DNA of 64,000 nt from Spirochaetia bacterium (GCA_965262935.1 OZ253572.1:6937980-7001979), one strand, 5' to 3'. Counted from the first letter of the stretch, positions 14,749 through 61,994 are shown. The notes: generated by a model not told the origin, from the sequence alone. Numbers and translations: made by a program.

Positions 14749-16095
14749 ATGAGCGGAGATATGGAGCCATCTACTACTTCAAGTGCGCTCCTGTCGTTCA
14801 CCGCAGAGAACGTTCGTTCCTACTCGAACGAGGTCCACCTCTCAATGCTTGGAACGAGACTGGCCGAAGCGGACGCGGTCCGCGATCTGCCGGCCGCGGG
14901 AACCCGGACGCCGACGAGCGTGTTGCCGGTTGCCGGCGTGTTCGGCGCCAATGCGTCCGGGAAGTCCACCCTGCTGCGCGCCATGCACGACATGCGCACC
15001 TTCGTCCTCTCCTCGTTTCGCCAAGGAGGAGCGGAAGCCAAGATCACTCGCCATCGGTTTCTTCTCCATGGCCCCGACATGCGCCCTTCTCGCTTCCAGA
15101 TCGAACTGATCCTGGACGGGGTGCGTTGGCAGTACGGGTTTGAGATTGATGACCGCCACGTCCTTGGCGAGTACGCCTACCACTATCCACGTGGGCGCCA
15201 AGCACTCGTATTCCGCCGAGAGCGCAACGCCCAGGCGATCAGCTTCGGTCCCGTGTTTCGTTCCTCAGGCAACGCACTCGCCCGGCTGGTCCCGGATAAC
15301 GCGCTCCTGTTGTCAGTAGCGGGTGCCGCCAAAGACACCCTGATTGGACCGCTGTTTACCTGGTTCCGCAACAATCTCCGTTTGATGGAGTCCGGCAATC
15401 GGGACCTGCGCATCGCGCTCACGGCTGATCTCATCCGGTCGCCCTATGCGCGTGAAGGCGCACTCGCCCTGCTGCAAGCCGCCGACCTCGGTATCGCCGA
15501 TGTCGAGCGGTTTCAACCGGAACTCGAGCCGGAAATGGTCGACCGCATCGCGCGCGCGCTCCGGATCCTGAACGAACCAGAGGATGACACTGACGCGAGC
15601 AACAAGTCATTCGTCTACAGCGAAGTAATTCGACTCCTTCACGTGGGCCGAGACGGTGCGGAAGCGATCGACGCGGGACTGGAGTCGCAAGGCACGCTGG
15701 TGTGGCTCGGCTTGGTGGGCCCGGTGCTTCAAGCCCTTCAAGACGGAACAGCCGTTCTGATTGACGAATTGGACGTGAGTCTTCACCCTCACTTGGCGCA
15801 CGAACTCGTTTCCTTTTTCCAGGGCCGTGACACCAACCGACGTTGTGCCCAGCTCATATTCAACGCGCACGATACCAGCATCCTCGGAGACAGCGGCCAG
15901 CGCTTCCTCGGCCGCGACCAGATCTGGTTCACTGAGAAGGATATAGATGGTGGCACCACTCTCTATCCGCTGTCGGACTTCCGCCCGAAGGGTGATGAAG
16001 CCGTAGGGCGTCGATATCTGCAGGGACGCTACGGGGCCGTGCCGGTGTTGAATCCAGCCGGGTTCCGCAAGGCTGCGGATACTATCGGTTCGTGA
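14749..16095 (+). CDS. AAA_21 ATPase (RloA / AbiLi-like)
   Basis: Walker A GANASGKS, signature ESQGT, Walker B LIDELDVSLHP, RDQIWFTEK, YLQGRYGAVP. Confidence 0.92.
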   Translation: MSGDMEPSTTSSALLSFTAENVRSYSNEVHLSMLGTRLAEADAVRDLPAAGTRTPTSVLPVAGVFGANASGKSTLLRAMHDMRTFVLSSFRQGGAEAKITRHRFLLHGPDMRPSRFQIELILDGVRWQYGFEIDDRHVLGEYAYHYPRGRQALVFRRERNAQAISFGPVFRSSGNALARLVPDNALLLSVAGAAKDTLIGPLFTWFRNNLRLMESGNRDLRIALTADLIRSPYAREGALALLQAADLGIADVERFQPELEPEMVDRIARALRILNEPEDDTDASNKSFVYSEVIRLLHVGRDGAEAIDAGLESQGTLVWLGLVGPVLQALQDGTAVLIDELDVSLHPHLAHELVSFFQGRDTNRRCAQLIFNAHDTSILGDSGQRFLGRDQIWFTEKDIDGGTTLYPLSDFRPKGDEAVGRRYLQGRYGAVPVLNPAGFRKAADTIGS

Positions 16096-16675
16096 CTCGC
16101 CCATTAGCCGGGCACCCGCGCCGGCGCGGCATTCCGCGTGTACCGCGACACGTGATCCGCGTTCTCACGGAGGGCAAGATCACGGAACCGGACTATCTGA
16201 CAAAGTGGGCGCGTCTCAACCGCCGCAACGTCCGCCTTGAGATCGGCGATAGCGGAATGACCCCGGACGCTCTCGTGCGCCGTGCGAAGGAGTACGTGAA
16301 GCGGAACCGTCGGACGAAACGTTCGGACCCGGAGTTCGACGAGATCTGGTGCGTATTCGACGCGGCATCAACGTCGCGGTCTCCAATCCATGCTTCGAAC
16401 TCTGGCTGGTGCTGCATCGGGAAGAGCAGACTGCCTACATCGACCGCGGTGACATCCAACAGCGGTCGGACATACTTCAACTCACTGCCAACAAGCGGAT
16501 TCTGCCCGTGGCAGAGCCTATCCTCGTCGATGCCGTTGACATGGCAAAGCAGCGCGCCAGAGCGCTCGACCGACGGCACGCCGATAATGGATCGCCGCCG
16601 CGCTCGAACCCCAGCACCGATGCATGGCGCCTTGTCGATCGGCTGCGGGCTGGGATGCAGGGCGGGCCGACCTAG
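16092..16675 (+). pseudogene. rloB: RloB-family protein with internal deletion and frameshift
   Basis: TEGKITEPDY...WCVFD joins out of frame directly to GINVAVSNPCFELWLVLH...NPST; junction near 16361. Confidence 0.85.
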
Positions 16676-16690
16676 CAGCCCGTCCTGCAT
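16655..16690. terminator. Hairpin between convergent rloB and ilvC
   Basis: ATGCAGGGCGGGC-N10-GCCCGTCCTGCAT, one G-T pair, no U tract. Confidence 0.45.
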
Positions 16691-16695
16691 GCAGG

Positions 16696-17712
16696 CTAGT
16701 TCTTGGACTTGTCGACCAGGCGCTCCTTGGCGATCCAGGGCATCATGGAGCGCAGCTTGGCGCCGACCTCCTCGAGCTGGTGGGCGGCGTGGTCGGAGCG
16801 CATGCGCAGGAACTCCTCGCGGCCGGCGCGGTTCTCGTCCATCCAGCTGCGCGCGAAGGTGCCTTCCTGGATCTCGGCCAGGATCTTCTTCATCTCGGCC
16901 TTGATGCGGTCGTCGATCAGGCGCGCGCCCGAGACGTAGTCGCCGTACTCGGCAGTGTCGGACACCGAGTAGCGCATCAACGACATGCCGCCCTCGTAGA
17001 TCAGGTCGACGATCAGCTTGACCTCGTGGATGGTCTCGAAGTAGGCCATCTCCGGGGCGTAGCCGGCCTCCACCAGCGTCTCGTAGCCGGCCTGCATCAG
17101 ATGGGTCAGGCCGCCGCACAGCACCGACTGCTCGCCGAACAGGTCGGTTTCGGTCTCCTCGCGGAAGTTGGTCTCGATCACCCCGGCGCGCGCACCGCCG
17201 ATCGCCGAGGCGTACGCCAGGGCCAGGTTCTTGCCGCCGCCGGAGGCTTCATTGGCCACCGCCACCAGGCACGGCACGCCGTAGCCGAGTTCGTACTGGC
17301 GGCGCACCGTGTGGCCCGGCCCCTTGGGCGCGACCATGGTCACGTCCACGTCGGCGGCCGGCTTGATCAATCCGAAGTGGATGTTGAAGCCGTGGGCGAA
17401 CATCAGGTTGTTGCCGGCCACCAGGCCCGGCTTGATGTCGCGCTCGTAGATCTCGGCCTGCAGATGGTCGGGCACCAGCATCATGATGGCGTCCGCCCAG
17501 GCGGCAGCGGCAGCCGTCTCCAGCACCGGTATGCCGGTCTCCTTTACCTTGGCCGCGCTGGCGCTGTCGGGACGCAGCCCCACCGCCACCTCCACGCCCG
17601 AGTCGCGCAGATTGTTGGCGTGCGCGAAACCCTGACTGCCGTATCCGATCACGGCCACTTTCTTGCCGGCGATCCACTGGCGCTCGATGTCATCCTCGTA
17701 ATAGACCTGCAT
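16696..17712 (-). CDS. ilvC: Ketol-acid reductoisomerase
   Basis: [42 protein letters not shown]. Confidence 0.98.
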
Positions 17713-17777
17713 GATTCCTCCCGAATTTCGGAAGCCAAAGCATACCGGGAACGTCCGCCGCGTGCTATACTGACGCG

Positions 17778-18491
17778 GTGGGAGTGGACTTGAAGGTCAC
17801 TGAACTACCGTCCGCGGCGATCATCGCTGCCCTCGACCGCATGGTGACCATGGTACAAGAGGAAGAAGATCCCGTTGAGCTCAAGGCATACCGCGCGCTG
17901 TTCAAGAAACACGTGCCCTTCAACCTGCGCGGCTACGTAACGGCGCACATGGTAAAGGAACTGGCCGGCGCCAGCGCCCGGCCGGACCGGAACGCGGATG
18001 CGCGGCGCGGAGACCAGCGCCGCCGGCCACGCCGGGCAGCCGCGCCGGCCGCCGCGGCTGCCGATACCGCCAGCGCCGCCGCCGAGCCACGCCGGGAACG
18101 CAGCGCCGAACTGCGCCGCCGGCCGCGCCGGGAAACCGCGCCGGCCGCCGCGGCTGCCGATGCCGCCAGCGCCGCCGGCGAAGCACGCCGGGAACGCAGC
18201 GCCGAGCAGCGCCGCCGGCCGCGCCGGGAAACCGAGCCGGCGCCCGAGGGCCTGAGCCGCCTGTTCGTCAGCATCGGGCGCAACCGGCGCGTCCTGCCCG
18301 ACGATCTGGCCGAGCTGATCAGCGACTCGGTGACCGTGGAACGATCCGAACTGGGTGAAATCAGAGTCCTCGACAGCTACTCGTTCGTCGAGGTTCCGGA
18401 GGCGGTCGCGGAGGACACCATCGCCGCCCTGTCCGGAACCAGTTTCAAGGGGCGGCGGATCACGGTCGATTTCGCCCGCGCCAAGACCTGA
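17778..18491 (+). CDS. DbpA RNA-binding-domain protein without a helicase core
   Basis: C-terminal [11 protein letters not shown]...[12 protein letters not shown]...[10 protein letters not shown]; extended -10 TGCTATACT just upstream. Confidence 0.85.
18015..18240 (+). repeat. 96-bp intragenic tandem repeat, about 2.3 copies
   Basis: 32-aa unit (Q/L)[26 protein letters not shown]. Confidence 0.85.
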
Positions 18492-18556
18492 GCACCCCGG
18501 TCCCGCCGCGTCCCGGCGACCCGCCGCCGCGTTGGCCGCCGGCGGGCAGCACCGAG

Positions 18557-19164
18557 GTGTGGCCGCAGGCCGACCTGCCGCGGCTGGCGCCGTTGCTGCA
18601 GCTTGCGCCGCGCGCGGAAACTGGAAATCGGCAGCGGCAACGGCAATTTCCTCGCCGCGCACAGCGCCGCCCGCGGCGACACCCTGGTGATCGGTACGGA
18701 ACTGAAGCTGGAACGGTGCCGCAAGAGCGCCCGCAAGCTGGGCGCCGCCGGCGCCGGCAATGGCCTCATCATCCATGGCCGCGCCGAGCAGGTGATCGGC
18801 TGGCTGCCGCCGGGGAGCCTGGACGCGGTGCACATCTATTTTCCCGATCCGTGGCCGAAGCGGCGCCACCGCAAGCGGCGCTTGCTGGCGCGGCAGCGAG
18901 GTGGCGCAACTGACGCGCCTGCTGCGGCCCGGCGGCTGTCTCCATCTGGTCACCGATTTCTTCGACTACTACCTGCAGGCCGTCGTGCTGCTGCTGCTGC
19001 AGCCCGATCTGGAGGTGGACCGCGACCCCGCCCTGCTGCCGGCGGCGGCCAATCTGTCCCGCTACGGACCGCGTCTGGAGGCCCTCGGCAAGAGCATCCT
19101 GTGCGCCACCGCGCGCCGGCGCGATGCCGCGCACCGGACCCACGGCAGCGGTCATCGCTGCTAG
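18557..19164 (+). CDS. trmB: tRNA (guanine-N7)-methyltransferase with two frameshifts (error or pseudogene)
   Basis: LEIGSGNG, FPDPWPKRRHRKRR, LRPGG..VTD split over three frames; shifts near 18619 and 18897. Confidence 0.8.
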
Positions 19165-19168
19165 CGGG

Positions 19169-19525
19169 TCAGCGGTTGCGGCGCTCCTCCGAGGACTGGC
19201 AGCCGATACACAGCAGCGCGTAGGGGATCGCCTCCAGGCGTTCGCGGGGAATGCGCGAGCCGCACTTCATGCACACGCCGTAGTGGCCGTTGGGAATGCG
19301 CGCCAACGCCGAATCGATCAGATTGAGACGGCGCATTTCCTGAACGCCGAGTGCCTCGAGCGTCTTGCGGTCGACATCCTCGGCGGCAACATCCACCAGA
19401 TCCTTGGGATCCATATCTTCCCAAAGCTCGCGAAACTCCGCGTCTTCCTGGGCCAGATGTGTCAGGATGTCCTTCTTCAGTGCGGTCAACCGCTGCCGCA
19501 TAGATTCGGTGAACGCTTTGTCCAA
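19169..19525 (-). CDS. dksA: DksA/TraR C4 zinc-finger transcription factor
   Basis: DxxDxA tip (DLVDVA); YGVCMKCG..IPRERLEAIP...CIGCQ. Confidence 0.85.
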   Translation of the reverse strand: MDKAFTESMRQRLTALKKDILTHLAQEDAEFRELWEDMDPKDLVDVAAEDVDRKTLEALGVQEMRRLNLIDSALARIPNGHYGVCMKCGSRIPRERLEAIPYALLCIGCQSSEERRNR

Positions 19526-19721
19526 GCCAGTCGACTCCCTACCAGAGCGGTGCCCCGACGCCGGCCGAGCCGGTGTGGGCGGGGCTGCGCATGTATGGGT
19601 GAATTATCGACCCCTTGTCAAGCTCCGTGAGTGCTTTGATGCTTTGTGAGCTTTGTATTGCAAGGCGTTTGGTTGACAAAACCGCCTAGCGGAGAAATCA
19701 TTGCCACTGAAAGGAGTTTTC

Positions 19722-19940
19722 TTGGCCAAAGAAGAGGCAATCGAGATTCAGGGCACGGTCAGAGAATCGTTACCCAATACCATGTTCCGGGTCGAGCTGC
19801 AGAACGGGCACCGGGTGCTTGCTCACCTGTCCGGAAAGATGCGCCGCCACTACATTCGCATCGTGCCCGGCGATCGGGTTCGGGTAGCTCTGTCCCCTTA
19901 CGATCTCACCCGAGGTCGCATCATCTACCGCGAACATTGA
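19722..19940 (+). CDS. infA: Translation initiation factor IF-1
   Basis: [32 protein letters not shown]; AAGGAG SD before TTG. Confidence 0.98.
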
Positions 19941-19953
19941 CGGTCGGGATGGG

Positions 19954-19985
19954 CCGCTAGCGACGCCGCAAGGCGACGCTAGCGG
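19954..19985. terminator. GNRA-capped hairpin after infA
   Basis: CCGCTAGCG-A-CGCC-GCAA-GGCG-A-CGCTAGCGG. Confidence 0.55.
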
Positions 19986-20166
19986 GGCGCTGACGGTGCC
20001 GAGTCGGCGAACCGCGGCGCAGTGTGTCCGCGGGCCGGGCTCCTCGGCGCACGGTGCGACCTTCCCCAGGGGGCGCTGATGTCCACTTCGGCGCTCGCCA
20101 GCGTCGGCCTGGTCACGCTCTGGGTCTGCCGACCAACGGTCAGCGCCGGGTCCAGTCCGGCTGGCA

Positions 20167-20730
20167 TCAATACCCGCCCGCGCCGCTGTCCGGCGGCAAT
20201 GCCGGGGCGGCCGCCTGCTGTTCCCGCAACCGTTCCAGGAGGTCCGATTCGGCCCCGCCGACGAGCGTCCGTCCGGCGCGGGCGCCGGTTCCGGCCGCCC
20301 GCCGTGCATCCTGCGCAGCGCCAGCTCGAGGTTGATTCGGGCATCCGCCGACTGTGGGCCGAGCATCAGCGCGTCGCGGAAGTGCAGCGCCGCCTCCCGA
20401 TAGCGGCCCGCCCGGTAGTGGGCATGGCCGAGGTTGAACGCCCACCCGGCGGCGCAGTTCCGGCGGCGCGTCATCGGCCACGCGCTGCAACAGCGCCAGC
20501 CCCGCATCGCTATCTCCCAGAGCCAGATAGGCGTTCGCCAGGTTGTAGGCCACAAACGGCGACCCGGCGTGCGTCGCGCCGCGGTAGTGGCGCATCGCGC
20601 GTACCAGGTCGCCGCGCGCAAAATCGTAGTTGCCCTCCAGGACGGCCACCGGCGGCTGCCGCCCGCCGGCGGCCAGCAGCACCAGCGCCAGCACCAGCGC
20701 CGGCGCTGTGCTCAGAACGTAGCGCGCCAT
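20167..20730 (-). CDS. TPR protein (BatC-like) with compensating frameshifts
   Basis: AYNLANAY in one frame; AFNLGHAHY...ADARINLELA in another. Confidence 0.75.
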   Translation of the reverse strand: MARYVLSTAPALVLALVLLAAGGRQPPVAVLEGNYDFARGDLVRAMRHYRGATHAGSPFVAYNLANAYLALGDSDAGLALLQRVADDAPPELRRRVGVQPRPCPLPGGPLSGGGAALPRRADARPTVGGCPNQPRAGAAQDARRAAGTGARAGRTLVGGAESDLLERLREQQAAAPALPPDSGAGGY

Positions 20731-21773
20731 CGTACCGCTCGGACCGCCGCGCACCCGGCCAGCGCCAGCAACGCGATCAGCGCCAGGACCGCGTAACGCG
20801 GCCGGCGAGCCGTATTGCGGGGCGCCGCGTGGCCGCGCCGCCATGCCTCCAGGTAAGCGCCCGCCGCGGCCATGGTGTCAGGCAGCAGCGGGTCCGCGAT
20901 CACCCCGCCGCTGAGCCGCGCGATCTCCCGCATCGCGCGCTCGTCGCGCGCCGACTGTTCGCCAGTCGCCGGGGACACCGCCGCGCCGGCTTGCCGGGCG
21001 GGCCGGGCGGGCCGGGCGGGCCCGGCTGCCGCGGCGCCGCCGGCCGGCACCGGCGCCCCCGCCGCCGTGCCCACCGGCACGGTCACGATCGCCACCCCGG
21101 CCCGCCCCGCCTGCCGCGCCACCGGCAGCGGCTCACCGGCGCTGCTCTCGCCATCCGACACCAATACCACGGTGCGCACCGCGCCCGCCCTGCCCGGCAA
21201 CTCGAAGGCCGCGTAACGCAACGCCGCGGCGAGTTGCGATGCGCCGAGTGCCGGCGCCTGGTCGTGCAGCGCGGCCAGGAGCTGCCGCAACGCGTAGCGA
21301 TCGTCGGTGAACGGCATCAGCAGATGGCTGGTGTCGCTGAATCCCACCACCGCAACCGTGGCGCCGGGCAGCGCCTCGACCAGCTCGCCGGCGGCCGCCA
21401 GCCCGTGCCGCAGACGGCTCGGCGCCACGTCCGTAACCGCCATGCTGCGCGACAGGTCGACCAGGAGCACCACCTCGCCGCCGCTCGGCTCCTGTTCCGG
21501 CCAGCCCACGCCCCAGCGCACGTCGGCGGCGCCCAGGATCACAGCGGCCACCGCCACACAGGTCAGCACGCCATCGGCGCCGCGCTTGCAGCGCAGCACC
21601 GCGGCCGGCGCAGGACCGGCCGCCGGCAGCGACGCCACGCGGCCCAGGGCATGCAGGTCGCGCCGGGCGCGGCGCGCGGCATACGCCAGCACGGCGGCCA
21701 GCGGCGCCAGCACGGCAAGCAGCAGCAGCACCCACGGCTGCTCAACGGTGATCGCACCGGACAGGTTCAGCAT
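20712..21773 (-). CDS. batB: VWA domain protein (BatB-like)
   Basis: MIDAS DLSRSM, DVAPSRL, MPFTDD, VSDGE; N- and C-terminal TM segments. Confidence 0.85.
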   Translation of the reverse strand: MLNLSGAITVEQPWVLLLLAVLAPLAAVLAYAARRARRDLHALGRVASLPAAGPAPAAVLRCKRGADGVLTCVAVAAVILGAADVRWGVGWPEQEPSGGEVVLLVDLSRSMAVTDVAPSRLRHGLAAAGELVEALPGATVAVVGFSDTSHLLMPFTDDRYALRQLLAALHDQAPALGASQLAAALRYAAFELPGRAGAVRTVVLVSDGESSAGEPLPVARQAGRAGVAIVTVPVGTAAGAPVPAGGAAAAGPARPARPARQAGAAVSPATGEQSARDERAMREIARLSGGVIADPLLPDTMAAAGAYLEAWRRGHAAPRNTARRPRYAVLALIALLALAGCAAVRAVRWRATF

Positions 21774-21787
21774 CCGCGCATGGCCCC

Positions 21788-22786
21788 TCAGAACAGCTCC
21801 GCGAGCACCACGCGGCGCAGCGCCACGTCGAGCAACAGCACGCACAGCGCCGCCAGCAGCACCGCGCGGTGGCGCGGCCGGCGCGATACCCGCACCCCGG
21901 TATGCCGATCGAGTCGTTCCAGCGCGTCGATCTCGCGGAACACCGCGGCCAGCGCCTCCGGTTCGGCCGCGGCGAAGAAGCGCCCGCCGGTGATCCGGGC
22001 CACCCGCTCCAGCAGGGCGGCATCGAACCGGCCGCGGTACCGGCCGCGCTGCGTCAGTCCGGTGCGCGGGTCGGTAATCTCCAGCACCGCGTCGCCGGCG
22101 CCGCCCATGCCGACGGTATAGATGCGCACGCCGTGCGCCGCAGCCAGCGCCGCGGCGTCCTCCGGCGTCAGCTCGCCGGCGTTGTGGTCGCCATCGGTGA
22201 GCAGCACGATCACCCGGCCCGGCGCGGCGCTGTCCGGCAGGTGCAGGAGGGCCACCGCGATACCCATGCCGATGGCGGTGGCGTCGCCCAGCGACATGAC
22301 CGCGGCGCCGTCGAGGGCAGCGTGCAGGGCTGCCCGGTCGAGCGTCTTGGGGACCCGCAGCACGGCGCGCTCGCTGAAGCTCACCATGCCGATGGCGTCG
22401 TTGCCGCGGCCGGCGACGAAGCCGCGAATTACCCTGACGGCGGCGGCCAGGCGGCTGTCTTCGCCCAGGTCGCGCGCCGCCATGCTCGGCGACTCGTCGA
22501 GCACGATCATCAGGTCGAGTCCCGCGGTCAGGAACACCTCCTCCTGGCGCACCCGCGCCGGGCCGGCAGCGGCGACGATCAGCAGCGCGGCGGCCAGCCA
22601 GAACGGGGCGCGGGCCGCGACGGCGAGCGCGCCCGGCATGCCGCGGTACACGAACGGGGTGCCGGCCCACCGCTGCAGCGGCGCACGCAGCACGCCGCCG
22701 CGCCCCGGACGGAAGTGGACCAGGTAGACGGCCGGCGGCACCAGCAGCAGCACGCCCAGCAGCAGCGGCTGCTCAAAGCTCCACAT
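21788..22786 (-). CDS. batA: VWA domain protein (BatA-like)
   Basis: DESPSM, TAIGMG, LLTDG.HNAG, IYTVGMG, TGGRFF. Confidence 0.9.
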   Translation of the reverse strand: MWSFEQPLLLGVLLLVPPAVYLVHFRPGRGGVLRAPLQRWAGTPFVYRGMPGALAVAARAPFWLAAALLIVAAAGPARVRQEEVFLTAGLDLMIVLDESPSMAARDLGEDSRLAAAVRVIRGFVAGRGNDAIGMVSFSERAVLRVPKTLDRAALHAALDGAAVMSLGDATAIGMGIAVALLHLPDSAAPGRVIVLLTDGDHNAGELTPEDAAALAAAHGVRIYTVGMGGAGDAVLEITDPRTGLTQRGRYRGRFDAALLERVARITGGRFFAAAEPEALAAVFREIDALERLDRHTGVRVSRRPRHRAVLLAALCVLLLDVALRRVVLAELF

Positions 22787-25177: not shown

Positions 25178-25276
25178 GGCGCGCACCAGCGGCGTACCGC
25201 CGGCCCCGCCAGCCGTGCCGGACCGGGGTGGCGGACGCCGTGGCGGGTCGCTCCACCGGTGCCGAGCGCCACGAGT

Positions 25277-44834: not shown

Positions 44835-44835
44835 A

Positions 44836-46585: not shown

Positions 46586-46590
46586 AAGCC

Positions 46591-49322: not shown

Positions 49323-49324
49323 CG

Positions 49325-49580: not shown

Positions 49581-49646
49581 AACGGCTGGCGGAGATTGTG
49601 GGACAGCAGCACCAATTGGTGTAGCATGTGGTCTCAGGACAAGACG

Positions 49647-49761: not shown

Positions 49762-50198
49762 GCATCAGGGCCTCGCTCAACGGCCGTACGGCAGCGGGCT
49801 TCGACATCTACGCGCGGCGCGAAGGCGCATACCAACTCATCATCCCAATCTGCCATGAGGACGGCGACATGGTGGACATTTACCTGCAGGAAAGTCCGCG
49901 CAGCGAAGCATACATCCGCATCTGCGACTTCGGCATGGCGCTGATGAGGCTTTCTTACTCCTACGATCTGAACACGGACACCCGGCTACGTATCTTCGAC
50001 GACATCCTGATCAACAACCAGGTCGCCAATGACAATGGCAACCTTTGCCTCGACGTACCGGTCGGAACGCTCTACGAAGGAATCATGCAGTTCGCCGGCT
50101 GTGTCCAAAAGGTGTGCAACATGCGCTACTGGGCGAGGGAAACCGACGCTGACGCATAACACGCGCGACTTCTACCTCTTCGGCGTGCTCGGCAACGT
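49749..50198 (+). pseudogene. DUF1828(/DUF1829) protein, truncated
   Basis: P..HEDGD.V.IY, I.DFGMALMRLS; stops at 50159; an out-of-frame DFYLFGV piece follows. Confidence 0.65.
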
Positions 50199-51239: not shown

Positions 51240-51313
51240 AACGGCGTGAATGTAGCGCGGCGGGCCGGGGTTTGACCACCGGGCGCCTGTTGCCGTACCG
51301 TCCCGGAGTCGCC

Positions 51314-52621: not shown

Positions 52622-52664
52622 AATCGCGGTTGGTTCCTCACTTGGCCCGCATGAGCCTGCCGTC

Positions 52665-53897: not shown

Positions 53898-55846
53898 CGC
53901 AGATTCCCGACCGGATTCCCGACCGCCTGCGCGCCCTCAGCAGCCGTTCCGACCCGGGCGAGGAATATTCCTTCCTGCCGCCCGGCTATCGGGCCGGTCA
54001 GACCAAGTTCATCATCGTCACCGGCAGCGTGATCAGCGGCCTCGGCAAGGGGGTGTTCTCCGCCGGCCTGGCGTCGCTGCTGGAGGAGCACGGCTGGCGC
54101 ACCAACCTGATCAAGATGGACGGCTACTTCAACGAGGACGCCGGCACCCTGAGCCCGTACCGCCACGGCGAGGTATTCGTGCTCGACGACGGCACCGAGT
54201 GCGACATGGACATCGGCACCTATGAACGGTTCGTCGACAAGAGCTTCTCGCAGCACAACATCTTCACCAACGGGCGGCTGACCCGGCGCTTGAACGAGCT
54301 GGAACGCAGCGGCCAGTTCTCCGGCTCCGACGTGCAGTTCTTTCCGCACGTGACCGGCGAGGTAATCCGCTTCGTGCGCGAGTCGTCGCTGGCCAACGAG
54401 GCGGACATCACCCTGGTGGAGATCGGCGGCACGGTCGGCGACGAGGAGGTGCGGCCGTACATCTCGGCGATGAGCGAACTCGCCTACCAGGAGGGCGAGA
54501 ACAACGTCTTGTTCATCAACCTGGCGTGGATCATCGAGGCCCCGCACCTGAACGAGCAGAAGAGCAAGGCCGCCCAGCACGGCACGCAGATGCTGATGCA
54601 GATGGGCATCAAACCGCACATGCTGGTGTGCCGGTGCGAGAATCCGGTGGAGCCCGGCGTGCTGCGCAAGCTGGCTCAGCGGCTGCGCCTGCCGGAACGC
54701 AACGTGATCGATCTGCACAGTCAGAAGTCGGTGTACCAGGTGCCGGACCACCTGGCGGCGCAGGACGTCGACGAGCTGACCCTGACCTACTTCGGCATGC
54801 AGCCCAAGGCCCGGCGGACACGGTTCAACTTCACCGAGTACCTCGGCCGGCTCACCCGCGCCAGCGAACGGGTGGTGGTGGGGCTGGCCGGCAAGTACAT
54901 GGGGCCGCGCGACACCTACGCCAGCATCCACAGCGCACTGGAGCACGCCGGCTGCGCCTGCGGCGTGCGGGTAGAGGTGGTGGACATCCCCACCGACGCC
55001 ATCGAACTGGCCGCCGGCGGCAGGGAACGGGTGGCGAACGCCGCGCGCCATCTGACCACGATGGACGGCATCATCGTGCCGGGCGGGTTCGGGGCGCGCG
55101 GCTGGGAAGGCAAGATCGCCTGCATCGCCCATGCGCGCACCAACGAGCTGCCGATGCTGGGCATCTGCTACGGATTCCAGGCGGCGATGGTGGAGTACGC
55201 CCGCTCCTGCTGCGACATGGCGGACGCCAACAGCACCGAGAACGACGCCACCACCACCGACCCGGTCGTGTGCCTGCTGCCGGAGCAGTACGAGATCGAA
55301 GGGATCGGCGGCTCGATGCGGCTCGGCGGCAAACAGGTAAAGCTGCGCGCCGGGTCGCTGGTGTCGGGCCTGTACGGGGGGCTGACGGCGCACGAGCGGT
55401 TCCGCCACCGTTACGAGTTCAACCCCCTCTACAAGGGCCTGTTCGAAGATTGCGGCATGGTGTTCTCCGGGTGGAAGGCGGATCAGTCGATCTACCAGGT
55501 TGCCGAGCTGCCCGACCATCCGTTCTTTATCGGGGTGCAGTTCCACCCCGAATTCACCAGCCGGCCGGCGCGCCCCAATCCGCTGTTCCACGGCTTCGTG
55601 GCCGCCTGCATCGCGCGCCGGCGGGCGCGGCACGACGGCGCCGCGCACGTACCCCGCGCCGGCGCCGCGGCTCGGGATGGCGGCGCAACGGTCGCGGCGG
55701 GGGCCGCCAGGGCCGCGGGCGACGCTGGCGGCGCTGGCGGCCTAGCGCGCGCCGCGCAGCGCTCGCCGGTAGCCACCGGGGCCGCTGGCGCGGCCGCGTC
55801 CCGCGCCGGCGCCGCGGCCAACGGCGACCGCACCGCGCCGCCGTGA
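53894..55846 (+). CDS. pyrG: CTP synthase
   Basis: SGLGKG, HGEVFV, EIGGTVGD, PGGFG, GICYG, RHRYE, QFHPE; Ala-rich tail. Confidence 0.96.
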   Translation: MTQIPDRIPDRLRALSSRSDPGEEYSFLPPGYRAGQTKFIIVTGSVISGLGKGVFSAGLASLLEEHGWRTNLIKMDGYFNEDAGTLSPYRHGEVFVLDDGTECDMDIGTYERFVDKSFSQHNIFTNGRLTRRLNELERSGQFSGSDVQFFPHVTGEVIRFVRESSLANEADITLVEIGGTVGDEEVRPYISAMSELAYQEGENNVLFINLAWIIEAPHLNEQKSKAAQHGTQMLMQMGIKPHMLVCRCENPVEPGVLRKLAQRLRLPERNVIDLHSQKSVYQVPDHLAAQDVDELTLTYFGMQPKARRTRFNFTEYLGRLTRASERVVVGLAGKYMGPRDTYASIHSALEHAGCACGVRVEVVDIPTDAIELAAGGRERVANAARHLTTMDGIIVPGGFGARGWEGKIACIAHARTNELPMLGICYGFQAAMVEYARSCCDMADANSTENDATTTDPVVCLLPEQYEIEGIGGSMRLGGKQVKLRAGSLVSGLYGGLTAHERFRHRYEFNPLYKGLFEDCGMVFSGWKADQSIYQVAELPDHPFFIGVQFHPEFTSRPARPNPLFHGFVAACIARRRARHDGAAHVPRAGAAARDGGATVAAGAARAAGDAGGAGGLARAAQRSPVATGAAGAAASRAGAAANGDRTAPP

Positions 55847-55965
55847 GCGCACGTGCGGCGGCTGCGCCCGCCACGCACGATCGTGACCGCGACCGCGCAG
55901 CGGGAAACGCCGGGCGCCGGCCGCCGGCGTAAGGCGCACGGACGGGGCGCGATGCGGAGCATGCA

Positions 55966-57246
55966 ATGCCGGTGACGGCGGTGGTCGGCGCCAACTGGGG
56001 CGACGAAGGCAAGGGCAAGCTGTGCGATTACCTGGCGGAGACCGCCGACCTGGTGATCCGCTTCCAGGGCGGCAAGAACGCCGGCCACACCGTGATCAAC
56101 CAGTACGGCAAGTTCGCCCTGCACCTGGTACCGTGCGGGGTGTGCCACGCCCACACCACCAACCTGCTGGGACCGGGCGTGGCGGTCGACGTGGCCGCGC
56201 TGCTGGCGGAGCTGGCCGAGCTGCGTGCCCGCGGCGCACCCAATCCGCGCGTGCTGATCGCCGACCGCGCCCAGGTGGTGCTGCCGTGGCACGTCGAGCT
56301 GGACCGCCTGGAGGAGGCGCGCCGCGGGGCGGCGAAGTTCGGCTCCACCGTGTCGGGCATCGCGCCGTTCTACGCCGACAAGTACCTGAAGGTGGGCATC
56401 CAGGTGGGCGAGCTGTTCGACGCCGATCACCTGCGCGGCCGGCTGCAGCACACCCTGCCGCGCATCAACGTGCTGCTCGAGCATCTCTACCGCGCCGACC
56501 CGCTGCGCCTGGACCGCGTCGTCGAGGAGTTGCTGGCCCTGGGCGCCGAGGTGCGCGAGATGACGGTAGACTCCACCGCGCTGCTGCAGGCGGCGCTGCG
56601 CGACGGCAAGCACCTGCTGCTGGAGGGCCAGCTCGGCGCACTGCGCGATCCCGACCACGGCATCTACCCGTATACCACCTCCTCGTCGCCGCTGGCCGGC
56701 TTCGCCACCGTCGGCGCCGGCGTGCCCGCGCATGCCATCGACCGGGTGGTGGCCACCGTCAAGGCGTACTCCTCCTGCGTCGGCGCCGGGCCGTTCACCA
56801 CCGAACTCACCGGGCCGTGCGGCGACGAGTTGCGCGCGCGCGGCGGCGACGCCGGCGAGTACGGCGCCACCACCGGGCGCCCGCGCCGGGTCGGCTGGTT
56901 CGACGCCGTCGCCACGCGCTACGGCTGCGCCGTGCAGGGCGCCACCGAGCTGGCCGTAACCCTGCTGGACGTGCTCGGCTACCGGGATGCCATTCCGATC
57001 TGCACCGCCTACGAGGTGGACGGCCGGCGCGTGCACGACTTCCCGGCCACGGCCGTGCTGGAGCGCGCGCGCCCGCTGTACGAGACCCTGCCCGGCTGGC
57101 GGTGCGACATCAGCGGCGTGCGCAGCTTCGCCGAGCTGCCCGCGGAGGCGCAGTCCTACGTGCAGACCATCGAGGCCGCCGCCGGCGTACCGGTGCGCTG
57201 GATCTCCATCGGCCCGCGCCGCGAACAGCTCATCCACATCACCTGA
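55966..57246 (+). CDS. purA: Adenylosuccinate synthetase
   Basis: WGDEGKGK, NAGHT, HGIYPYTTSS, GATTGRPRRVGWFD. Confidence 0.97.
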   Translation: MPVTAVVGANWGDEGKGKLCDYLAETADLVIRFQGGKNAGHTVINQYGKFALHLVPCGVCHAHTTNLLGPGVAVDVAALLAELAELRARGAPNPRVLIADRAQVVLPWHVELDRLEEARRGAAKFGSTVSGIAPFYADKYLKVGIQVGELFDADHLRGRLQHTLPRINVLLEHLYRADPLRLDRVVEELLALGAEVREMTVDSTALLQAALRDGKHLLLEGQLGALRDPDHGIYPYTTSSSPLAGFATVGAGVPAHAIDRVVATVKAYSSCVGAGPFTTELTGPCGDELRARGGDAGEYGATTGRPRRVGWFDAVATRYGCAVQGATELAVTLLDVLGYRDAIPICTAYEVDGRRVHDFPATAVLERARPLYETLPGWRCDISGVRSFAELPAEAQSYVQTIEAAAGVPVRWISIGPRREQLIHIT

Positions 57247-58590
57247 CTACCTGTTTGCCTGCATGCCGGCGTAGGGTGCCAGCAGCCATTCGGCGGCCGC
57301 TTGTATCGCAGTCCCGGCCGGCGGCGGCAAGGGGAAGGCGTCACCGGTCAGGGTGATCAGTCGCTTGCCGGCACGCGGGAACTGACTGCCGGCCGCGGCC
57401 AGGGCGCGCAACTCACGGGCGGAAGTCGCCGTATCGGTGGCGTCCGCACACACCTGGATCAACTCCATGCCGCCGGCGGCGTCGCGCGCCAGGAAGTCGA
57501 CCTCGTAGCCTTCCGGCGTGCGCACGTAGGTGACCTCGCGCCGCCGGCGCTCCAGCTCGATCAGGACCGCGGTTTCCAGCGCATGGCCGACGTTGGCCCG
57601 CCCGCTACGGTCGAACACCGGGATCAGGCCGGTATCGACCGGATACACCTTGCGCGGGTTTACCATGCGCTGGCGCTCGGAAACCGACTCCATCCACACC
57701 ACCCGCACCAGGTAGCAGTCCTCCAGGTAGGCGAGGTATTCGTGCAGCGTGTCGCGGGCCACCGGCAGGCCCTGGGAACGCAGCACGGCGTAAAACTTCT
57801 CCACGCTGAAGGTGGACCCGGCATTGCCCAGGAGGTGGCGCACCAGCCAGCGCAGCGCGGTCACGTTGCGCACCTGGTGGCGCTCCACCACGTCGCGCAG
57901 CACCGCCACGTCCACATAGTCGCGGTAGAGCTGATGCCGGGACTCGGCGTCGAGCCCCTGCGCTTCCGGAAAGCCGCCGGTGGCAAGCCAGTCCAGCAGC
58001 GCCCGCTCCAGGGAGGAGCGTTCGCGGCGCGTCCCGCGCTCCGGATCGGCGGGGATCGACTGCCCTCGGTGGCGCAGCGCTTCGGCGAACGCGAACGGAT
58101 GGATCAACACCTGCCACGCCCGTCCGCGCAGCGCGGTGGCGATCTCTCGCGACAGCAGCGCCGCGGACGATCCGCTGATCAGCACCTCGCTGCCGCCGGC
58201 GTCGAGCAGCCGGCGCACGAACCGCTCCCAGCCCGGCACCAGCTGGATCTCGTCGAAGCACCACGTCACCGTTTCGTCGTGAGCCTGCCGGACGCGCCGG
58301 TAGTATTCGTCCACCAGCACGCCAAGCTCCTCAGCTTCCAGACCGGCCAGGCGCTCGTCTTCGAAGGACAGAAACGGCAGCCGGTCCAGGGCGATGCCCC
58401 GCTCGATACGCTCGCGGCGAAGCTGATGCAGAAAGGTGGTCTTGCCGGCGCGCCGCATCCCGGTCACCGCCGTGGCCTTGCCCGGCAATCCGGTGCGTCC
58501 GAACACCCGGCGCGGCGTAAACGACGGCAGCGGCCGCCCGAGCGACTCCACAAGCTGTCCCACCAAAGCCTGCCGCAACGAAACGGCCAT
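57247..58590 (-). CDS. AAA_14 + DUF4143 ATPase, intact
   Basis: GMRRAGKT, FDEIQ, SGSSA, LRGR, GGFPE, KVY..DTG, EVDF. Confidence 0.92.
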   Translation of the reverse strand: MAVSLRQALVGQLVESLGRPLPSFTPRRVFGRTGLPGKATAVTGMRRAGKTTFLHQLRRERIERGIALDRLPFLSFEDERLAGLEAEELGVLVDEYYRRVRQAHDETVTWCFDEIQLVPGWERFVRRLLDAGGSEVLISGSSAALLSREIATALRGRAWQVLIHPFAFAEALRHRGQSIPADPERGTRRERSSLERALLDWLATGGFPEAQGLDAESRHQLYRDYVDVAVLRDVVERHQVRNVTALRWLVRHLLGNAGSTFSVEKFYAVLRSQGLPVARDTLHEYLAYLEDCYLVRVVWMESVSERQRMVNPRKVYPVDTGLIPVFDRSGRANVGHALETAVLIELERRRREVTYVRTPEGYEVDFLARDAAGGMELIQVCADATDTATSARELRALAAAGSQFPRAGKRLITLTGDAFPLPPPAGTAIQAAAEWLLAPYAGMQANR

Positions 58591-58593
58591 CTC

Positions 58594-58649
58594 ATTTCTC
58601 CTTATTAAAAGGAGAAATTACCATGGATTTCGCCTCTTGAAAAGGCGAA
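58594..58649. promoter_or_regulatory. Two related inverted repeats 33 bp apart; the first contains the SD
   Basis: ATTTCTCCTT-N5-AAGGAGAAAT (58594-58618) and TTCGCCT-N7-AGGCGAA (58629-58649). Confidence 0.7.
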
Positions 58650-58657
58650 TGTGCTCC

Positions 58658-60262
58658 TCAGTAGTCGTCGAACACTGCCGGATCGACGGCCGGAAGCGTG
58701 GCCGCCTTCCAGATGTCCACGGGTGCGTCGTTGCTCTGCTCCGGTCCCGGCGTGCTGCGGCCGGCAGCGACCAGTCGCTTCAGGCGCGCCACCATCTCCT
58801 TCACCACCGCGGGGTGTTCGGCATGCAGGTTGTGACGCTCGGCCGGGTCGCGCTGCATGTCGTAGAGCTGGACCAGCGGCAGCCCATCGCGCGCCGCGGC
58901 GGCGTCGTCCAGGGTCCAGCCCCCCGAGCCGGGGCACAGCACCAGCTTCCAGCGCTGGTCGCGGATGGCGAACTTGCCGGAGATCGAGTGGTGCACGACA
59001 TGGTCGCGGATCGGCTCGCCGCTGCCCTGCAACAAGGGCAGCATGCTGAAACTGTCCTCCCCGGCGGTGGCGGGCAGCGAGGCGTTCAGGAAGTCGGCGC
59101 AGGTGGCCAGCAGATCGGTCAGGCACACGAGCTGGTCGCTGCCGCTGCCGGGCTCGATCACCCCCGGCCAGCGCGCGATGAACGGGACGCGATGGCCGCC
59201 GTCCCAGGCGTCGGACTTGTAACCGCGAAAGCCGGCGCTCGGATGGTGCCCCTGCGCCTCCATCTGGTCGGCGCCGATGTACGGCGCACAGCCGTTGTCG
59301 CTGGTGAAGACGACCAGGGTGTTGTCGGCGACGCCGTGGCGCTGCAGGGAGTCGAGCACTTGGCCGAACACGTCGTCGGTTTCCATCACCAGATCGGCGT
59401 ACAGGTTGTTCAGTCCGCTGGCTCCGATCCAGCGCTTGTTCACCGACAGCGGGGTGTGCGGCGAGGTCATCGGCAGATACAGGAAGAACGGCTGCCGTTC
59501 GGCGGAGCGGGCGGCGATGTAGCGGTCGGCGGCGCGGGCGAACGCCGGCAGGAGCTGCTCGAAGTGCCAGTAGGGCATCGCCGGGCCCGGCAGGCTGGCC
59601 AGATTGTCGCCGAGCAGCCGCGCCGGCAGGAACTCCGAGGGCGTGCCGATGGTGGCGTCGTTTTCGATGTAGCAATAGGGCGGCCAGTTGGGCACGTCGA
59701 CGCCGAAATAGTAGTCGAACCCGCGCGCGGTGGGGCCGCCCGCGATCGTGCGCGAAAAGAAATCGCGCCACAGCGCCCGTTGCCGCTCGGTTGCCTCGAG
59801 CCCGGCGCCGGCCGGCTCCTCGTTCGGGTGCGGCGGCAGGAAATCCTCGTTTGCGGCACTAGGCCAGTTGGCCGATGCCGCGGTTGGTCCGGGCCGCGTC
59901 CCTGCTGAAGCAAAGGGCCAGTCCATGCCGAGATGCCACTTGCCGATCGCGCCGCAGTGATAGCCGTGGCTGTGCAGCAGTTTGCCCACCGTGAGCCGCC
60001 GTTCGTCGATCAGCGGCGGGCCGTACGGACTGACGATGCCCTTCTGCAGGGGCGAACGCCAGTTGTAGCGGCCGGTCAGCACGCCGTACCGGGAAGGGGT
60101 GCACACCGCGGAGCTGGAGTGCGCGTCCCGGCACACCATCCCCTCGCGCGCCAGCCGGTCGAACTGCGGCGTGGCGATTCTGCCGCGCGGATTGAGGCAG
60201 GACACGTCGCCACACCCCATGTCATCGACCAGAAAATAGACGACGTTCGGCTTGCTCGCCAT
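58658..60262 (-). CDS. Arylsulfatase
   Basis: PNVVYFLVDDMG, CTPSRYGVLTGRY, GKWHLG, SDNG, GGHRVP. Confidence 0.95.
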   Translation of the reverse strand: MASKPNVVYFLVDDMGCGDVSCLNPRGRIATPQFDRLAREGMVCRDAHSSSAVCTPSRYGVLTGRYNWRSPLQKGIVSPYGPPLIDERRLTVGKLLHSHGYHCGAIGKWHLGMDWPFASAGTRPGPTAASANWPSAANEDFLPPHPNEEPAGAGLEATERQRALWRDFFSRTIAGGPTARGFDYYFGVDVPNWPPYCYIENDATIGTPSEFLPARLLGDNLASLPGPAMPYWHFEQLLPAFARAADRYIAARSAERQPFFLYLPMTSPHTPLSVNKRWIGASGLNNLYADLVMETDDVFGQVLDSLQRHGVADNTLVVFTSDNGCAPYIGADQMEAQGHHPSAGFRGYKSDAWDGGHRVPFIARWPGVIEPGSGSDQLVCLTDLLATCADFLNASLPATAGEDSFSMLPLLQGSGEPIRDHVVHHSISGKFAIRDQRWKLVLCPGSGGWTLDDAAAARDGLPLVQLYDMQRDPAERHNLHAEHPAVVKEMVARLKRLVAAGRSTPGPEQSNDAPVDIWKAATLPAVDPAVFDDY

Positions 60263-60344
60263 CAATCGCTCACCGCCGTCGAGCGATGCTTCCACAGTCG
60301 GTCCGTGAACCGGTCGTCGTCTCGAACAGATCGGGTTCGGTGCT

Positions 60345-61472
60345 TCATGAGTTGCCCGCGAAGGGTAACTCGATCTGAGACGAGCGGACAGGCAGCGGCG
60401 CGGGCTCGTACTCGGCAGAGAATACGCCGCCGGTCACGGCTTCGATCGCGGTCGGGACGATGAGTTGCAGGTCGGTCTCCTGGGCGGTAACGACGGGGAA
60501 TTCGTAGTGCCGGTTGACGTGCCGGCAGGGGCGGCCTGCCTCCTCTCGGGATTGCACGAAGCCCAGATGTGCGTGCAGGCGTCGCTGAGCGTATGCGCTT
60601 CCGAGTGAGACGGCGGTCTCGATGGTATTGCGGATCGGTTGCTCGAGACCGCGTTCGATCTCGAAGCCTATACTGGAGCGGCCGCCGGCGCTGGCGGCTG
60701 CCGTGGTGGTGCCGGTGCCGAGGAACGGGTCGAGCACCGTGTCGCCGATCAGCGAGTACATCTGGATCAGGCGGTAGGCCAACTCGAACGGGTACGCGCC
60801 GCTGCGCGCGCGGGCGTCAGGCTCGTCGATACCCGTGTTGTTGCCGAGGAGTTGCCGGGTGCCGACCAAACCGAGCCATACGTCGGAGAACCACTCGTTG
60901 CGTTCCTCCCAGAAGAAGGCGCTGCGCCTGCGGCGGGCCTTGTCGGCGGGCGAGAACGTGCGCGGGACGCCGTTGCGGGCGATCAGGATGTACTCGTGCT
61001 CGTAGGTGACGTAGGCGCCGGCCGGCAGCATGCCGGAGCCGAGGAACTTGTTGGGGGCGTTGGTCGGTTTGCGCCACAGGATGTCGGGAAGTATGGAGAA
61101 CCCGATCTCGATCAAGGCGTGCAGGATGCGGCTGTGGTTGGAGAACAGCCGGAATTCGCCGCCGATCTTGCGGGTGGCGTCGCCGATGTTGATGCATGCC
61201 AGCCCGCCCGGCTGCAGCACCCGGTGGCACTCGCGCCACACCGCGTCGAGGCGGGAATGCATCGACTCGAACGCCTGGCTCCCATCCTCGGCGGTAAGCG
61301 CGTTCGCGATGCTCGAGTCGGCCGCGGCGAACTGCTCGTCCCACAGCGCGATCATCGGGTAGGGGGGCGAGGTCACCACCAGCGCCACCGAGCCGTCGGC
61401 CACCGCCGCCATCTGCCGCGCATCTGCGAAATGGATCTGGTGCTGCGTCGTCTCCATCGGCAGCCGGCTCAC
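60345..61472 (-). CDS. Orphan amino-DNA methyltransferase, beta class (N4-C likely)
   Basis: TSPPY (motif IV) precedes DPFLGTGTT (motif I); GTGA overlap with ridA. Confidence 0.9.
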   Translation of the reverse strand: MSRLPMETTQHQIHFADARQMAAVADGSVALVVTSPPYPMIALWDEQFAAADSSIANALTAEDGSQAFESMHSRLDAVWRECHRVLQPGGLACINIGDATRKIGGEFRLFSNHSRILHALIEIGFSILPDILWRKPTNAPNKFLGSGMLPAGAYVTYEHEYILIARNGVPRTFSPADKARRRRSAFFWEERNEWFSDVWLGLVGTRQLLGNNTGIDEPDARARSGAYPFELAYRLIQMYSLIGDTVLDPFLGTGTTTAAASAGGRSSIGFEIERGLEQPIRNTIETAVSLGSAYAQRRLHAHLGFVQSREEAGRPCRHVNRHYEFPVVTAQETDLQLIVPTAIEAVTGGVFSAEYEPAPLPVRSSQIELPFAGNS

Positions 61473-61846
61473 ACGCCGGCGACCACATCGATTTCGACGC
61501 GGAACTGTTTGGCCAAGCCGGCCTGCACCGTGCTGCGCGCCGGCCGCGGCGCGGGAAAGAACTCCTCGTAGATCGCGTTCATCTCCGCGAACCGCGCCAT
61601 GTCGGTCAGGTAGACGGTCGCCTTCAGCACCTTGTCCATCGCCGAGCCGCCCGCCTCCACCAGCGTCCTGACGTTGGCCAGCACCTGCCGCACTTCGGCG
61701 CCGAAGTCACCCTCCACCGGCTCACCGGTGGCCGGATCGACGCCCACCTGCCCGGAAACGAACAACAACTCGCCCCAGCGCAGCGCCGGCGTATAGGGCC
61801 CGGCCGGCGCCGCTCCCTGTGCCGACGTAATCGGTGTCTTGTCCAT
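61469..61846 (-). CDS. ridA: RidA/YjgF enamine deaminase
   Basis: GPY, FVSGQ, MN..Y..FF, PARS; TAAGGAG SD. Confidence 0.9.
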   Translation of the reverse strand: MDKTPITSAQGAAPAGPYTPALRWGELLFVSGQVGVDPATGEPVEGDFGAEVRQVLANVRTLVEAGGSAMDKVLKATVYLTDMARFAEMNAIYEEFFPAPRPARSTVQAGLAKQFRVEIDVVAGV

Positions 61847-61940
61847 GTAATTGCTCCTTATGGACGCCGCTACGGCGCCTCTGCGAGACCGCGCAGTCGC
61901 GGCGCCCAGCATGCCGCACCACGGCGAACGACGCCAGCAC

Positions 61941-61994
61941 CTACAGAGCGGGATCCAGCGTGATTGGGCGTTTACACGGTGCCCAGCGGCTCAA
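61941..61994 (-). pseudogene. hicA: HicA toxin remnant (17 codons)
   Basis: TTG overlapping the hicB end: MSRWAPCKR-PITLDPAL*, resembling fused N- and C-termini of this HicA subfamily. Confidence 0.55.

Follow-up and report, generated by a model that had tools for sequence, protein, structure and literature searches.

How does a genome come to carry, at five separate places in one stretch, toxin and defence genes whose first and last parts are joined with the middle missing? The stretch analysed here, hereafter the window, is a 64,000-nucleotide segment of a Spirochaetia bacterium (GCA_965262935.1), C1:6937980-7001979 in the single contig of 7,006,115 bases. A sequence-only reading had named five such genes, higB, hicA, rloB, an AAA_14 ATPase and the partner of a DUF1828 gene, and had proposed that an active process excises toxin cores while leaving gene ends, promoters and antitoxins in place. 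Our analysis points to ordinary relics of toxin-antitoxin (TA) and anti-phage modules, which lie in variable islets between conserved genes and were eroded by spontaneous deletions, with selection filtering which of these deletions are seen; we give this explanation a probability of about 0.75.

Window positions carry the prefix w where needed, and C1 denotes the contig of the own assembly; the contig start, which recurs in part in the window, is called the head copy and the window the tail copy. All five loci are gene remnants left by deletion, with breakpoints at or within a base of the places already named, and the neighbouring higA, hicB and AbiLi ATPase genes proved intact, being of full length in profile searches. 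The remnants and these neighbours are the following:

14662..16095, plus strand: AbiLi, an RloA-like AAA_21 ATPase, the full-length partner of the broken rloB (Pfam AAA_21, 115.9 bits; PADLOC AbiLi, E 2.8e-82, 274 bits)
16092..16675, plus strand: rloB (AbiLii) remnant with a 49-nt deletion and frameshift at 16361/16362 (Pfam RloB, alignment)
37045..37347, minus strand: higA, an intact orphan antitoxin (Pfam HTH_3, 33.1 bits)
37366..37495, minus strand: higB remnant with a 148-nt internal deletion at about 37402 and a frameshift (alignment to the full-length gene of G014)
43915..44894, minus strand: AAA_14-DUF4143 ATPase (PADLOC candidate PDC-S01) with a 229-nt deletion at 44223/44224 (head-copy comparison, Pfam, PADLOC)
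49647..49761, plus strand: DUF1828-partner remnant with a 382-nt internal deletion at 49712/49713 (intact 166-aa allele at C1:299796-300293)
61941..61994, minus strand: hicA remnant, nine codons followed by a 160-nt deletion at 61968/61967 (alignment to G008)
61972..62244, minus strand: hicB, an intact UPF0150-type antitoxin (Pfam UPF0150, 90.9 bits)

The start of rloB overlaps the stop of AbiLi (GTGA), and Pfam RloB matches the remnant in two pieces, profile positions 3-74 and 97-195 of 195. In the intact rloB genes of the genomes G007, G022 and G002, 49 extra bases stand between TTCGAC and GCGG, which the window is without; their loss removes a VDQH...ARQS stretch and shifts the frame. The intact relative in G007 matches PADLOC AbiLii (E 3.3e-25), and the rloA-rloB pair of the window corresponds to AbiL, in the PADLOC models an AbiLi ATPase together with an AbiLii/RloB Toprim protein, from which it differs by its broken AbiLii: a full-length AbiLi is present, while the complete RloB/Toprim partner is missing. 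The VDQH segment probably carries the catalytic acidic motif of Toprim proteins. Because the frameshifting deletion falls over this segment of AbiLii, the AbiL system is presumably dead. The rloB stretch is 100% identical to C1:10625-12745, and as it lies in the part of the window that overlaps the contig start exactly, it represents one main-chromosome locus that was read twice.

The higB remnant aligns to the full-length higB-higA of G014 at 83%, and its Pfam HigB-like match covers only positions 2-28 of 91 (E 0.0011, under the curated cut-off). The locus has the gene arrangement of HigBA, a RelE-fold higB directly upstream of an HTH higA, and no complete translatable toxin, 148 nt being gone and the frame shifted, so that it is a relic of the family rather than a working member. 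The HigA protein is 89-93% identical to copies in five other genomes, across two genera, and the ratio of nonsynonymous to synonymous substitution rates (dN/dS) of the orphan higA lies at 0.06-0.19 for 14 of 15 pairs, the remaining pair, which is the least diverged, giving 0.34; the orphan gene is under purifying selection. One copy, that of G017, has a stop at codon 86. Directly before the remaining hig sequence, an upstream element (TTGACAAGTGTC... with an inverted repeat) is kept in G022, in G018, in the window and in a third copy of the cassette.

This third copy (G000:C1:4422953-4423140) is more decayed: about 12 higB codons are joined to the last few at a 3-nt microhomology, higA is cut to residues 74-99, most of it being lost, and the upstream element is still there. 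The family's only full-length higB among the genomes searched (G014:C2, about 2924800-2924880) is shifted in frame by 1 base some 10 codons short of its stop, which may be a real lesion or a homopolymer error. At the hig site the head copy (C1:316663-317826) holds a different, larger islet without an aquaporin gene, in which an AAA_15/AAA_21 ATPase (best PADLOC match NsnB, E 7e-30) is accompanied by small unknown ORFs (open reading frames).

The sequence that follows the break in hicA had been taken for the C-terminus of HicA; it is common to G008 and is not the end of HicA, the 3′ part having been lost already in the shared ancestor. Together with the 160-nt loss, this means that the window's hicA has undergone at least two deletions. 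An intact 76-aa HicA is found in G014 and G020, and the nine codons left in the window match the start of that gene, whose link to Pfam HicA_toxin is by way of a 35%-identical paralogue lying on a PF07927 match only. Another broken hicA occurs at G000:C1:5243475-5243842 (one in-frame TGA, profile positions 2-50 of 58), beside a HicB-like match. At the hicB site the head copy (C1:279771-286109) carries a 7-kb islet with a C5 DNA methylase and a Vsr endonuclease, together with a 984-aa HATPase_c_3/HEF_HK/HATPase_c protein and a Response_reg_2 protein; by its gene content, this islet looks like a methylase-linked defence cluster.

For the two remaining remnants, as for the DUF1828/1829 gene and vapBC, the head copy holds intact alleles at about 92-98% identity. 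The ATPase deletion is exactly 229 nt, with 40 of 40 identical bases in each flank and no microhomology. Its intact 402-aa allele (C1:308185-309393) covers AAA_14 positions 5-127 of 129 and DUF4143 positions 2-159 of 160 and matches PDC-S01 at E 4.9e-54, while the window gene, which retains AAA_14 and only positions 122-159 of 160 of DUF4143, falls outside PDC-S01. In the DUF1828 partner, the first 23 and last 15 codons are left, joined at a 3-nt microhomology (AGT).

The expectation that the toxin decays first was borne out when three TA families were compared across genomes:

hicBA, 7 loci: hicA whole at 2 loci and cut at the other 5 through no fewer than 4 events; hicB unchanged at 5, with a frameshift in G019 and, in G021, 7 codons lost in the same deletion
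higBA, 7 loci: higB whole at no locus (a frameshift at 1, an internal deletion at 2, loss of the entire gene at 4, with at least 5 different junctions); higA kept at 6
vapBC, 11 loci: vapC whole at 8 and missing or cut at 3; vapB retained at 11 of 11

Over the three families, 15 of 25 loci have a broken toxin gene and 4 an altered antitoxin gene, and an intact toxin beside a broken antitoxin was found at none of the 25. The loci thus have the form of two-step decay, in which the toxin is truncated or absent and the antitoxin intact at syntenic loci, with the reverse rare. Two features of the window belong to this comparison:

41573..41848, plus strand: vapB, an AbrB/MazE-type antitoxin standing alone, with vapC (PIN) gone by a 446-nt deletion at 41848/41849 (head-copy comparison)
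41845..42781, plus strand: pair of a HEPN-like (NTase_sub_bind) gene and an MNT nucleotidyltransferase gene (Pfam NTase_sub_bind, positions 4-123 of 126; NTP_transf_2)

The window VapB scores 40.1 bits against MazE_antitoxin, and the head copy holds both genes (PIN, 49.6 bits), so that the VapBC order of VapB followed by a PIN-domain VapC is broken in the window by the absence of the PIN gene. Between tail and head, vapB has a dN/dS of 0.22. The tail also lacks the whole of a second vapBC pair (767 nt at w57261/57262). Both genes of the HEPN/MNT pair are apparently of full length, and its HEPN-like toxin (w41845-42276) is an undisarmed toxin in the window.

Among 17 HigB-like loci of the own assembly, 8 are intact, 1 has a nonsense codon (TAG) and 8 are cut by deletion, of which 5 are without the 5′ part, 1 is without the 3′ part and 2 are internal. 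A HigA-like neighbour, judged by unbroken tblastn matches, is present at 16 of the 17, which sets 9 of 17 broken HigB-like genes against 1 of 17 HigA neighbours. When HicA and HicB were paired by coordinates genome-wide, HicB without a partner was not clearly more frequent than HicA without one; the majority of the genome's HicA genes are whole.

Comparison of the tail with the head copy revealed 13 clean deletions of 18-2,029 nt in which the tail lacks sequence and 7 events of at least 15 nt in which the head does; three replaced islets (w37003-37972, 49347-49713 and 61857-62332) were left out, since MAFFT gave scattered gaps there and not deletion events. Microhomology at the 13 clean junctions is 0-3 nt in 10 and 7 and 9 nt in 2, while the last lies in an imperfect 77-nt tandem repeat. 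As 0-3 nt is near the level expected by chance, microhomology-mediated joining, one of the routes suggested earlier, is not indicated by these scores, and no shared motif was noticed at the junctions. A full-length Ku is present (149 bits, positions 2-189 of 190); Ku together with 10 of 13 junctions at 0-3 nt would fit scars of non-homologous end joining, but chance gives such junctions likewise, and from scars alone no pathway can be named. The five named deletions (49, 148, 229, 382 and 160 nt) are all of length 3n+1 and shift the frame by +1; the others, of 446, 116, 255 and 767 nt, break the pattern, so there is no frame rule and the agreement is probably due to chance. At w51210/51211, near a fructose-bisphosphate aldolase-like gene, the head copy (C1:297900-298000) has an imperfect 77-nt tandem duplication that the window does not have.

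Deletions of the same kind are carried by genes that are not toxins (the aquaporin, helicase, DUF1828/1829 and ATPase genes) and by intergenic DNA. Three of these genes, beside the ATPase already listed, are:

37538..38068, minus strand: aquaporin (MIP) gene with its 3′ end cut where the hig cassette begins (Pfam MIP, positions 10-150 of 222)
49325..49537, plus strand: C-terminal stub (70 aa) of a large helicase (PADLOC PDC-S68, positions 1007-1067 of 1221; UvrD_C_2)
49749..50198, plus strand: DUF1828/1829 gene (PDC-M24B-like) with deletions of 116 nt (50144/50145) and 255 nt (50196/50197) (head-copy comparison)

The aquaporin, which is whole in G007, G008 and G004, has lost about 67 C-terminal residues, including the second NPA motif. 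The parent of the helicase stub was about 1,200 aa in size, and the head copy retains another PDC-S68 stub, at positions 23-234; an 801-aa gene of the head copy was considered as the parent and rejected, Pfam and PADLOC showing it to encode a dynamin/GTPase-like protein. Helicase, partner and DUF1828/1829 gene make up one dead locus carrying at least four deletions. In G006 (G006:C40), which is about 82% identical to the window at DUF1828/1829, this gene breaks off within 1 nt of where the window's two deletions begin on the left and resumes at their right edge; just upstream, window and head copy are 98% identical.

How these remnants are to be read depends on what the window itself is, for most of it has a second version in the same contig:

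3980..64000, strand not applicable: second copy of the contig start, exact and then 1-12% diverged, corresponding to C1:19-26 kb in direct and C1:328-273 kb in inverted order

A megablast search of the window against its own genome placed w3980-24000 on C1:1-19999 and w24204-30476 on C1:19990-26098, both in direct order, and w30531 to the contig end on C1:327870 down to 273449, inverted. Between w3980-18979 and C1:1-15000 there are zero mismatches across fifteen 1-kb bins and only 6 gap columns; beyond w18979 the divergence of tail from head climbs to 1.4-12%. The gene in which contig base 1 lies (w3415-4806, minus strand) is complete only when the end of the contig is joined to its start. A duplicate that begins at contig base 1 and stays identical for 15 kb is the mark left by a circular contig that was read on past its first base. 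In the diverged part, the two copies differ by substitutions and very few small gaps (for example 96.4% identity over 4,860 nt with 1 gap), and the dN/dS of 24 ORFs is 0.08-0.53 (24 of 27 rows; 46725-47429, 48200-49322 and 62255-63680 were left out, having been entered out of frame). Since these differences are substitutions under purifying selection, the tail is real biological sequence and not read noise, whichever its origin. The relative G007, a single contig, gave one match per locus searched, in the order of the head copy. It is most likely that the contig of the circular chromosome overran its own start and from there continued along a variant that is diverged and rearranged, the haplotype of a co-occurring strain; a true duplication within one cell is unlikely as the source. 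Because most of the window is this diverged second version, four of the five loci describe the variant and not the main chromosome. The assembly probably exceeds its proper length by about 64 kb and has a chimeric end, and its last 64 kb should not be counted as extra genome content, since they inflate gene and pseudogene counts and mix two haplotypes. Coding density by a GC3 filter (59% genome-wide, 65% in the window) was dropped as a measure, because the filter discards genes of low GC3 and gives no reliable pseudogene load. At w983-2059 lies a repeat of about 0.5-1 kb with more than 20 genome copies at 79-90% identity, probably an insertion sequence or other mobile repeat.

Contigs assembled from public runs were aligned on w30301-50300. 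The four runs used are strongly strain-mixed, with short contigs and many variants; the best holds 0.73 of the sampled words, and runs with a share of 0.30-0.37 or less were left out. The alignments are of assembled contigs, not raw reads, and 32 of 7,977 aligned pieces were listed, so that they speak to the existence of a form and not to its depth, strain share or absence. The higB junction is crossed without a difference by contigs of X9 (w37270-37942) and X10 (w37270-37610), and the vapC junction is crossed by contigs of X1, X9, X10 and X11 that extend at least 39 bases on their shorter side, three of these contigs matching without a difference. Joints from 37386 to 37458 and from 37129 to 37360 fit the third higBA copy (C1:4422953-4423140). 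A contig of X11 joins w37347 to w37498 with 38 other letters, and looks like one more higB-deleted allele.

Taken together, these observations would fit the following course of events. Spontaneous deletions would hit TA and defence modules in variable islets. A cell that lost the antitoxin while the toxin still worked would die, so that only toxin-first or whole-module losses would survive and the antitoxin would remain; the asymmetry between toxins and antitoxins is thus explained by survivorship, because antitoxin-first loss is lethal. At least one antitoxin gene, higA, would then be retained by purifying selection, its most likely use being that of a repressor or regulator or of protection from related toxins, the orphan antitoxins presumably being expressed and useful in such a role. 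The dead gene would gather further deletions, and nearby accessory genes other than toxins would erode likewise. As to the repair pathway, blunt joints or joints with 0-3 nt would fit error-prone end joining, Ku being present, or other illegitimate recombination, and the few small deletions between direct repeats of 7-9 nt would fit replication slippage.

Several points weigh against this explanation. The loci come from related genomes and are not independent, so that the Fisher tests (p = 0.003 for the three families, p = 0.0066 for HigB against HigA) overstate the asymmetry, and the separate deletion events were counted by eye from distinct junctions. Toxins scored as intact may hide inactivating missense changes, and some of the older remnants may have been disabled by a point mutation before any deletion occurred; a deletion is clearly the initial lesion only in genes that are otherwise undamaged, namely the ATPase, the partner and vapC when compared with the head copy. 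The outer breakpoints shared by G006 and the window are not predicted by random, independent deletion, and stem either from an old deleted allele that recombination has transferred or from a hot spot. At the ATPase junction, none of the 32 listed pieces of 7,977 is a bridging contig: one of X9 ends at w44223, and one of X11 matches to w44223 and then continues for 306 letters unlike the window, which would fit an undeleted ATPase allele without proving it. No listed piece crosses the DUF1828-partner junction, which lies inside w30301-50300, and the rloB and hicA junctions, being outside that interval, are without independent confirmation. Finally, the earlier claim that promoters survive has the upstream element conserved across the hig loci as its sole basis, for a sigma-70 promoter scan of w37300-37620 found no consensus site and no terminator, and no site upstream of higB.

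The deletions could also owe their appearance to the assembly itself, as collapses or mis-joins in a poorly supported, redundant contig end. The window is indeed a second copy of the contig start, exact for 15 kb and then diverged and rearranged, the four aligned public runs are strain-mixed, and at the ATPase junction the listed contigs stop at 44223 or run on into other sequence. We nevertheless regard an artefact as unlikely, because the copies differ by substitutions and few small gaps with dN/dS below 1 in the ORFs compared, contigs of two and four other runs bridge the higB and vapC junctions, mostly without a difference, the rloB deletion lies in the exact overlap and hence in the main chromosome, and relatives show independent deletions in the same gene families. 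A true segmental duplication in one cell, with the redundant tail copy decaying, is quite unlikely: two copies of about 45 kb do stand in one contig, and much more sequence is missing from the tail than from the head (over the inverted block the tail has 37.6 kb and the head 54.4 kb, with 13 tail-lacking against 7 head-lacking events), yet the housekeeping genes of the tail are without frameshifts and under purifying selection, the copy starts at contig base 1 inside a gene and is identical for 15 kb, and G007 has a single match for each locus searched. Very unlikely, in our judgement, is the directed process proposed by the sequence-only reading, in which a nuclease cut followed by repair, or microhomology end joining, would remove toxin cores and spare ends, promoters and antitoxins. 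Of the lesions that can be seen, deletion is by far the most frequent (it accounts for 8 of the 9 broken HigB-like genes here and for every broken hicA and vapC found), the five named deletions share a +1 frame shift, G006 and the window share outer breakpoints, and Ku is present; against this, the aquaporin, helicase, DUF1828/1829, ATPase and intergenic DNA are deleted likewise, both ends are kept in a minority (2 of the 8 deleted HigB-like genes) and relatives show whole-gene, 5′ and 3′ losses with breakpoints that vary by lineage, the junctions have neither a noticed motif nor microhomology above chance, the further deletion lengths obey no frame rule, many toxins are intact, and survivorship alone explains the asymmetry.

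A possible alternative, though one we hold to be distinctly the less probable, is adaptive domestication, in which toxin loss was positively selected and orphan antitoxins and their operators were kept for anti-addiction cover or host regulation; it would add to the explanation by ordinary decay more than replace it. The conservation of higA across two genera with a dN/dS of about 0.1, even though no locus of the family has an intact higB, speaks for it, as do the upstream element retained at four hig loci, the retention of vapB at all its loci together with its low dN/dS, and the presence in the own genome of about 30 HigA-like genes and several intact HigB relatives, conceivable targets of such orphans; for ccd, the anti-addiction idea stands as established in the excerpted text of PMC2654758. 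On the other side, part of the purifying selection on higA may predate each higB loss, the G017 higA is interrupted and little of higA survives in the genome's third copy, and the promoter scan found nothing. For the window's orphan antitoxins no cognate toxin on a mobile element came to light, and the nearest intact HigB in the own genome is only 43% identical to the lost higB, which makes cross-neutralisation by the orphan higA doubtful. Its more specific form, in which the family's antitoxins, above all higA with its operator-like element, are domesticated, the toxins are shed repeatedly by blunt end-joining deletions and the orphans serve as immunity to incoming hig modules or as regulators, seems to us rather improbable; behind it stands the repeated loss of higB, with 5 or more separate deletion junctions among the 7 loci and one further allele in a public run. 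If it were true, the breakpoints shared by G006 and the window would hint at deletion alleles spreading by recombination, or at hot spots.

Decay by spontaneous deletion under survivorship therefore remains our preferred reading, and we found no reason to think that the mechanism here is different from the TA decay already described; the pattern is a known one, and the case is a further instance of known gene decay. What the window offers is an example, at base resolution, of the death of TA and defence modules in a high-GC genome, where most of the damage that can be seen is deletion, toxins are lost ahead of antitoxins, and the antitoxin left behind is maintained by selection. There is also a practical warning, as gene callers will list the antitoxins here as lone regulators and overlook the toxin scars.

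Among known systems, Mine et al. are said to have described in 2009 (Genetics) that the toxin of ccdO157 in E. coli degenerates while the antitoxin still works. As presented in the excerpted text of PMC2654758, ccdO157 resembles the present case in being a chromosomal TA system that degenerates within a species, and belongs to a different family. The same text sets out the anti-addiction model together with the decay of chromosomal TA systems, and reports from Saavedra De Bast et al. 2008 that ccdEch acts as an anti-addiction module against the ccd of the F plasmid; there a chromosomal antitoxin could counter a related toxin that comes in, which is the part that the sequence-only reading suggested for the orphans. 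CcdEch is a complete, experimentally tested TA pair, whereas the antitoxins here are orphans. The deletional bias and rapid erosion of bacterial pseudogenes are treated in the excerpted texts of Kuo and Ochman 2009 (PMC2817411) and 2010 (PMC2916853) and Danneels et al. 2018 (PMC6054270), where dead genes shrink by repeated deletions as they do here, the evidence in those studies being genome-wide statistics. The closest parallel is the study of Photorhabdus by Belot et al. 2026, Mol Biol Evol (PMC13617665), in whose excerpted text the predicted TA systems that are not functional mostly have truncated toxin ORFs, point mutations being seen in just two cases, the pseudogenised copies number 185 for toxin only, 186 for both genes and 8 for antitoxin only, and a two-step decay is proposed in which the toxin is inactivated first. 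From what that text presents, Photorhabdus and the window share TA systems in small variable spots, their frequent loss by whole deletion or toxin pseudogenisation, an excess of truncations over point mutations, and a decay that often takes the toxin alone or both genes and seldom the antitoxin alone, while the window belongs to another, high-GC lineage, concerns other TA families and is known from sequence alone. The window thus provides a second lineage for the pattern shown in Photorhabdus, to which it adds, relative to the excerpted account, base-level breakpoints, scored microhomology and purifying selection on one orphan antitoxin.

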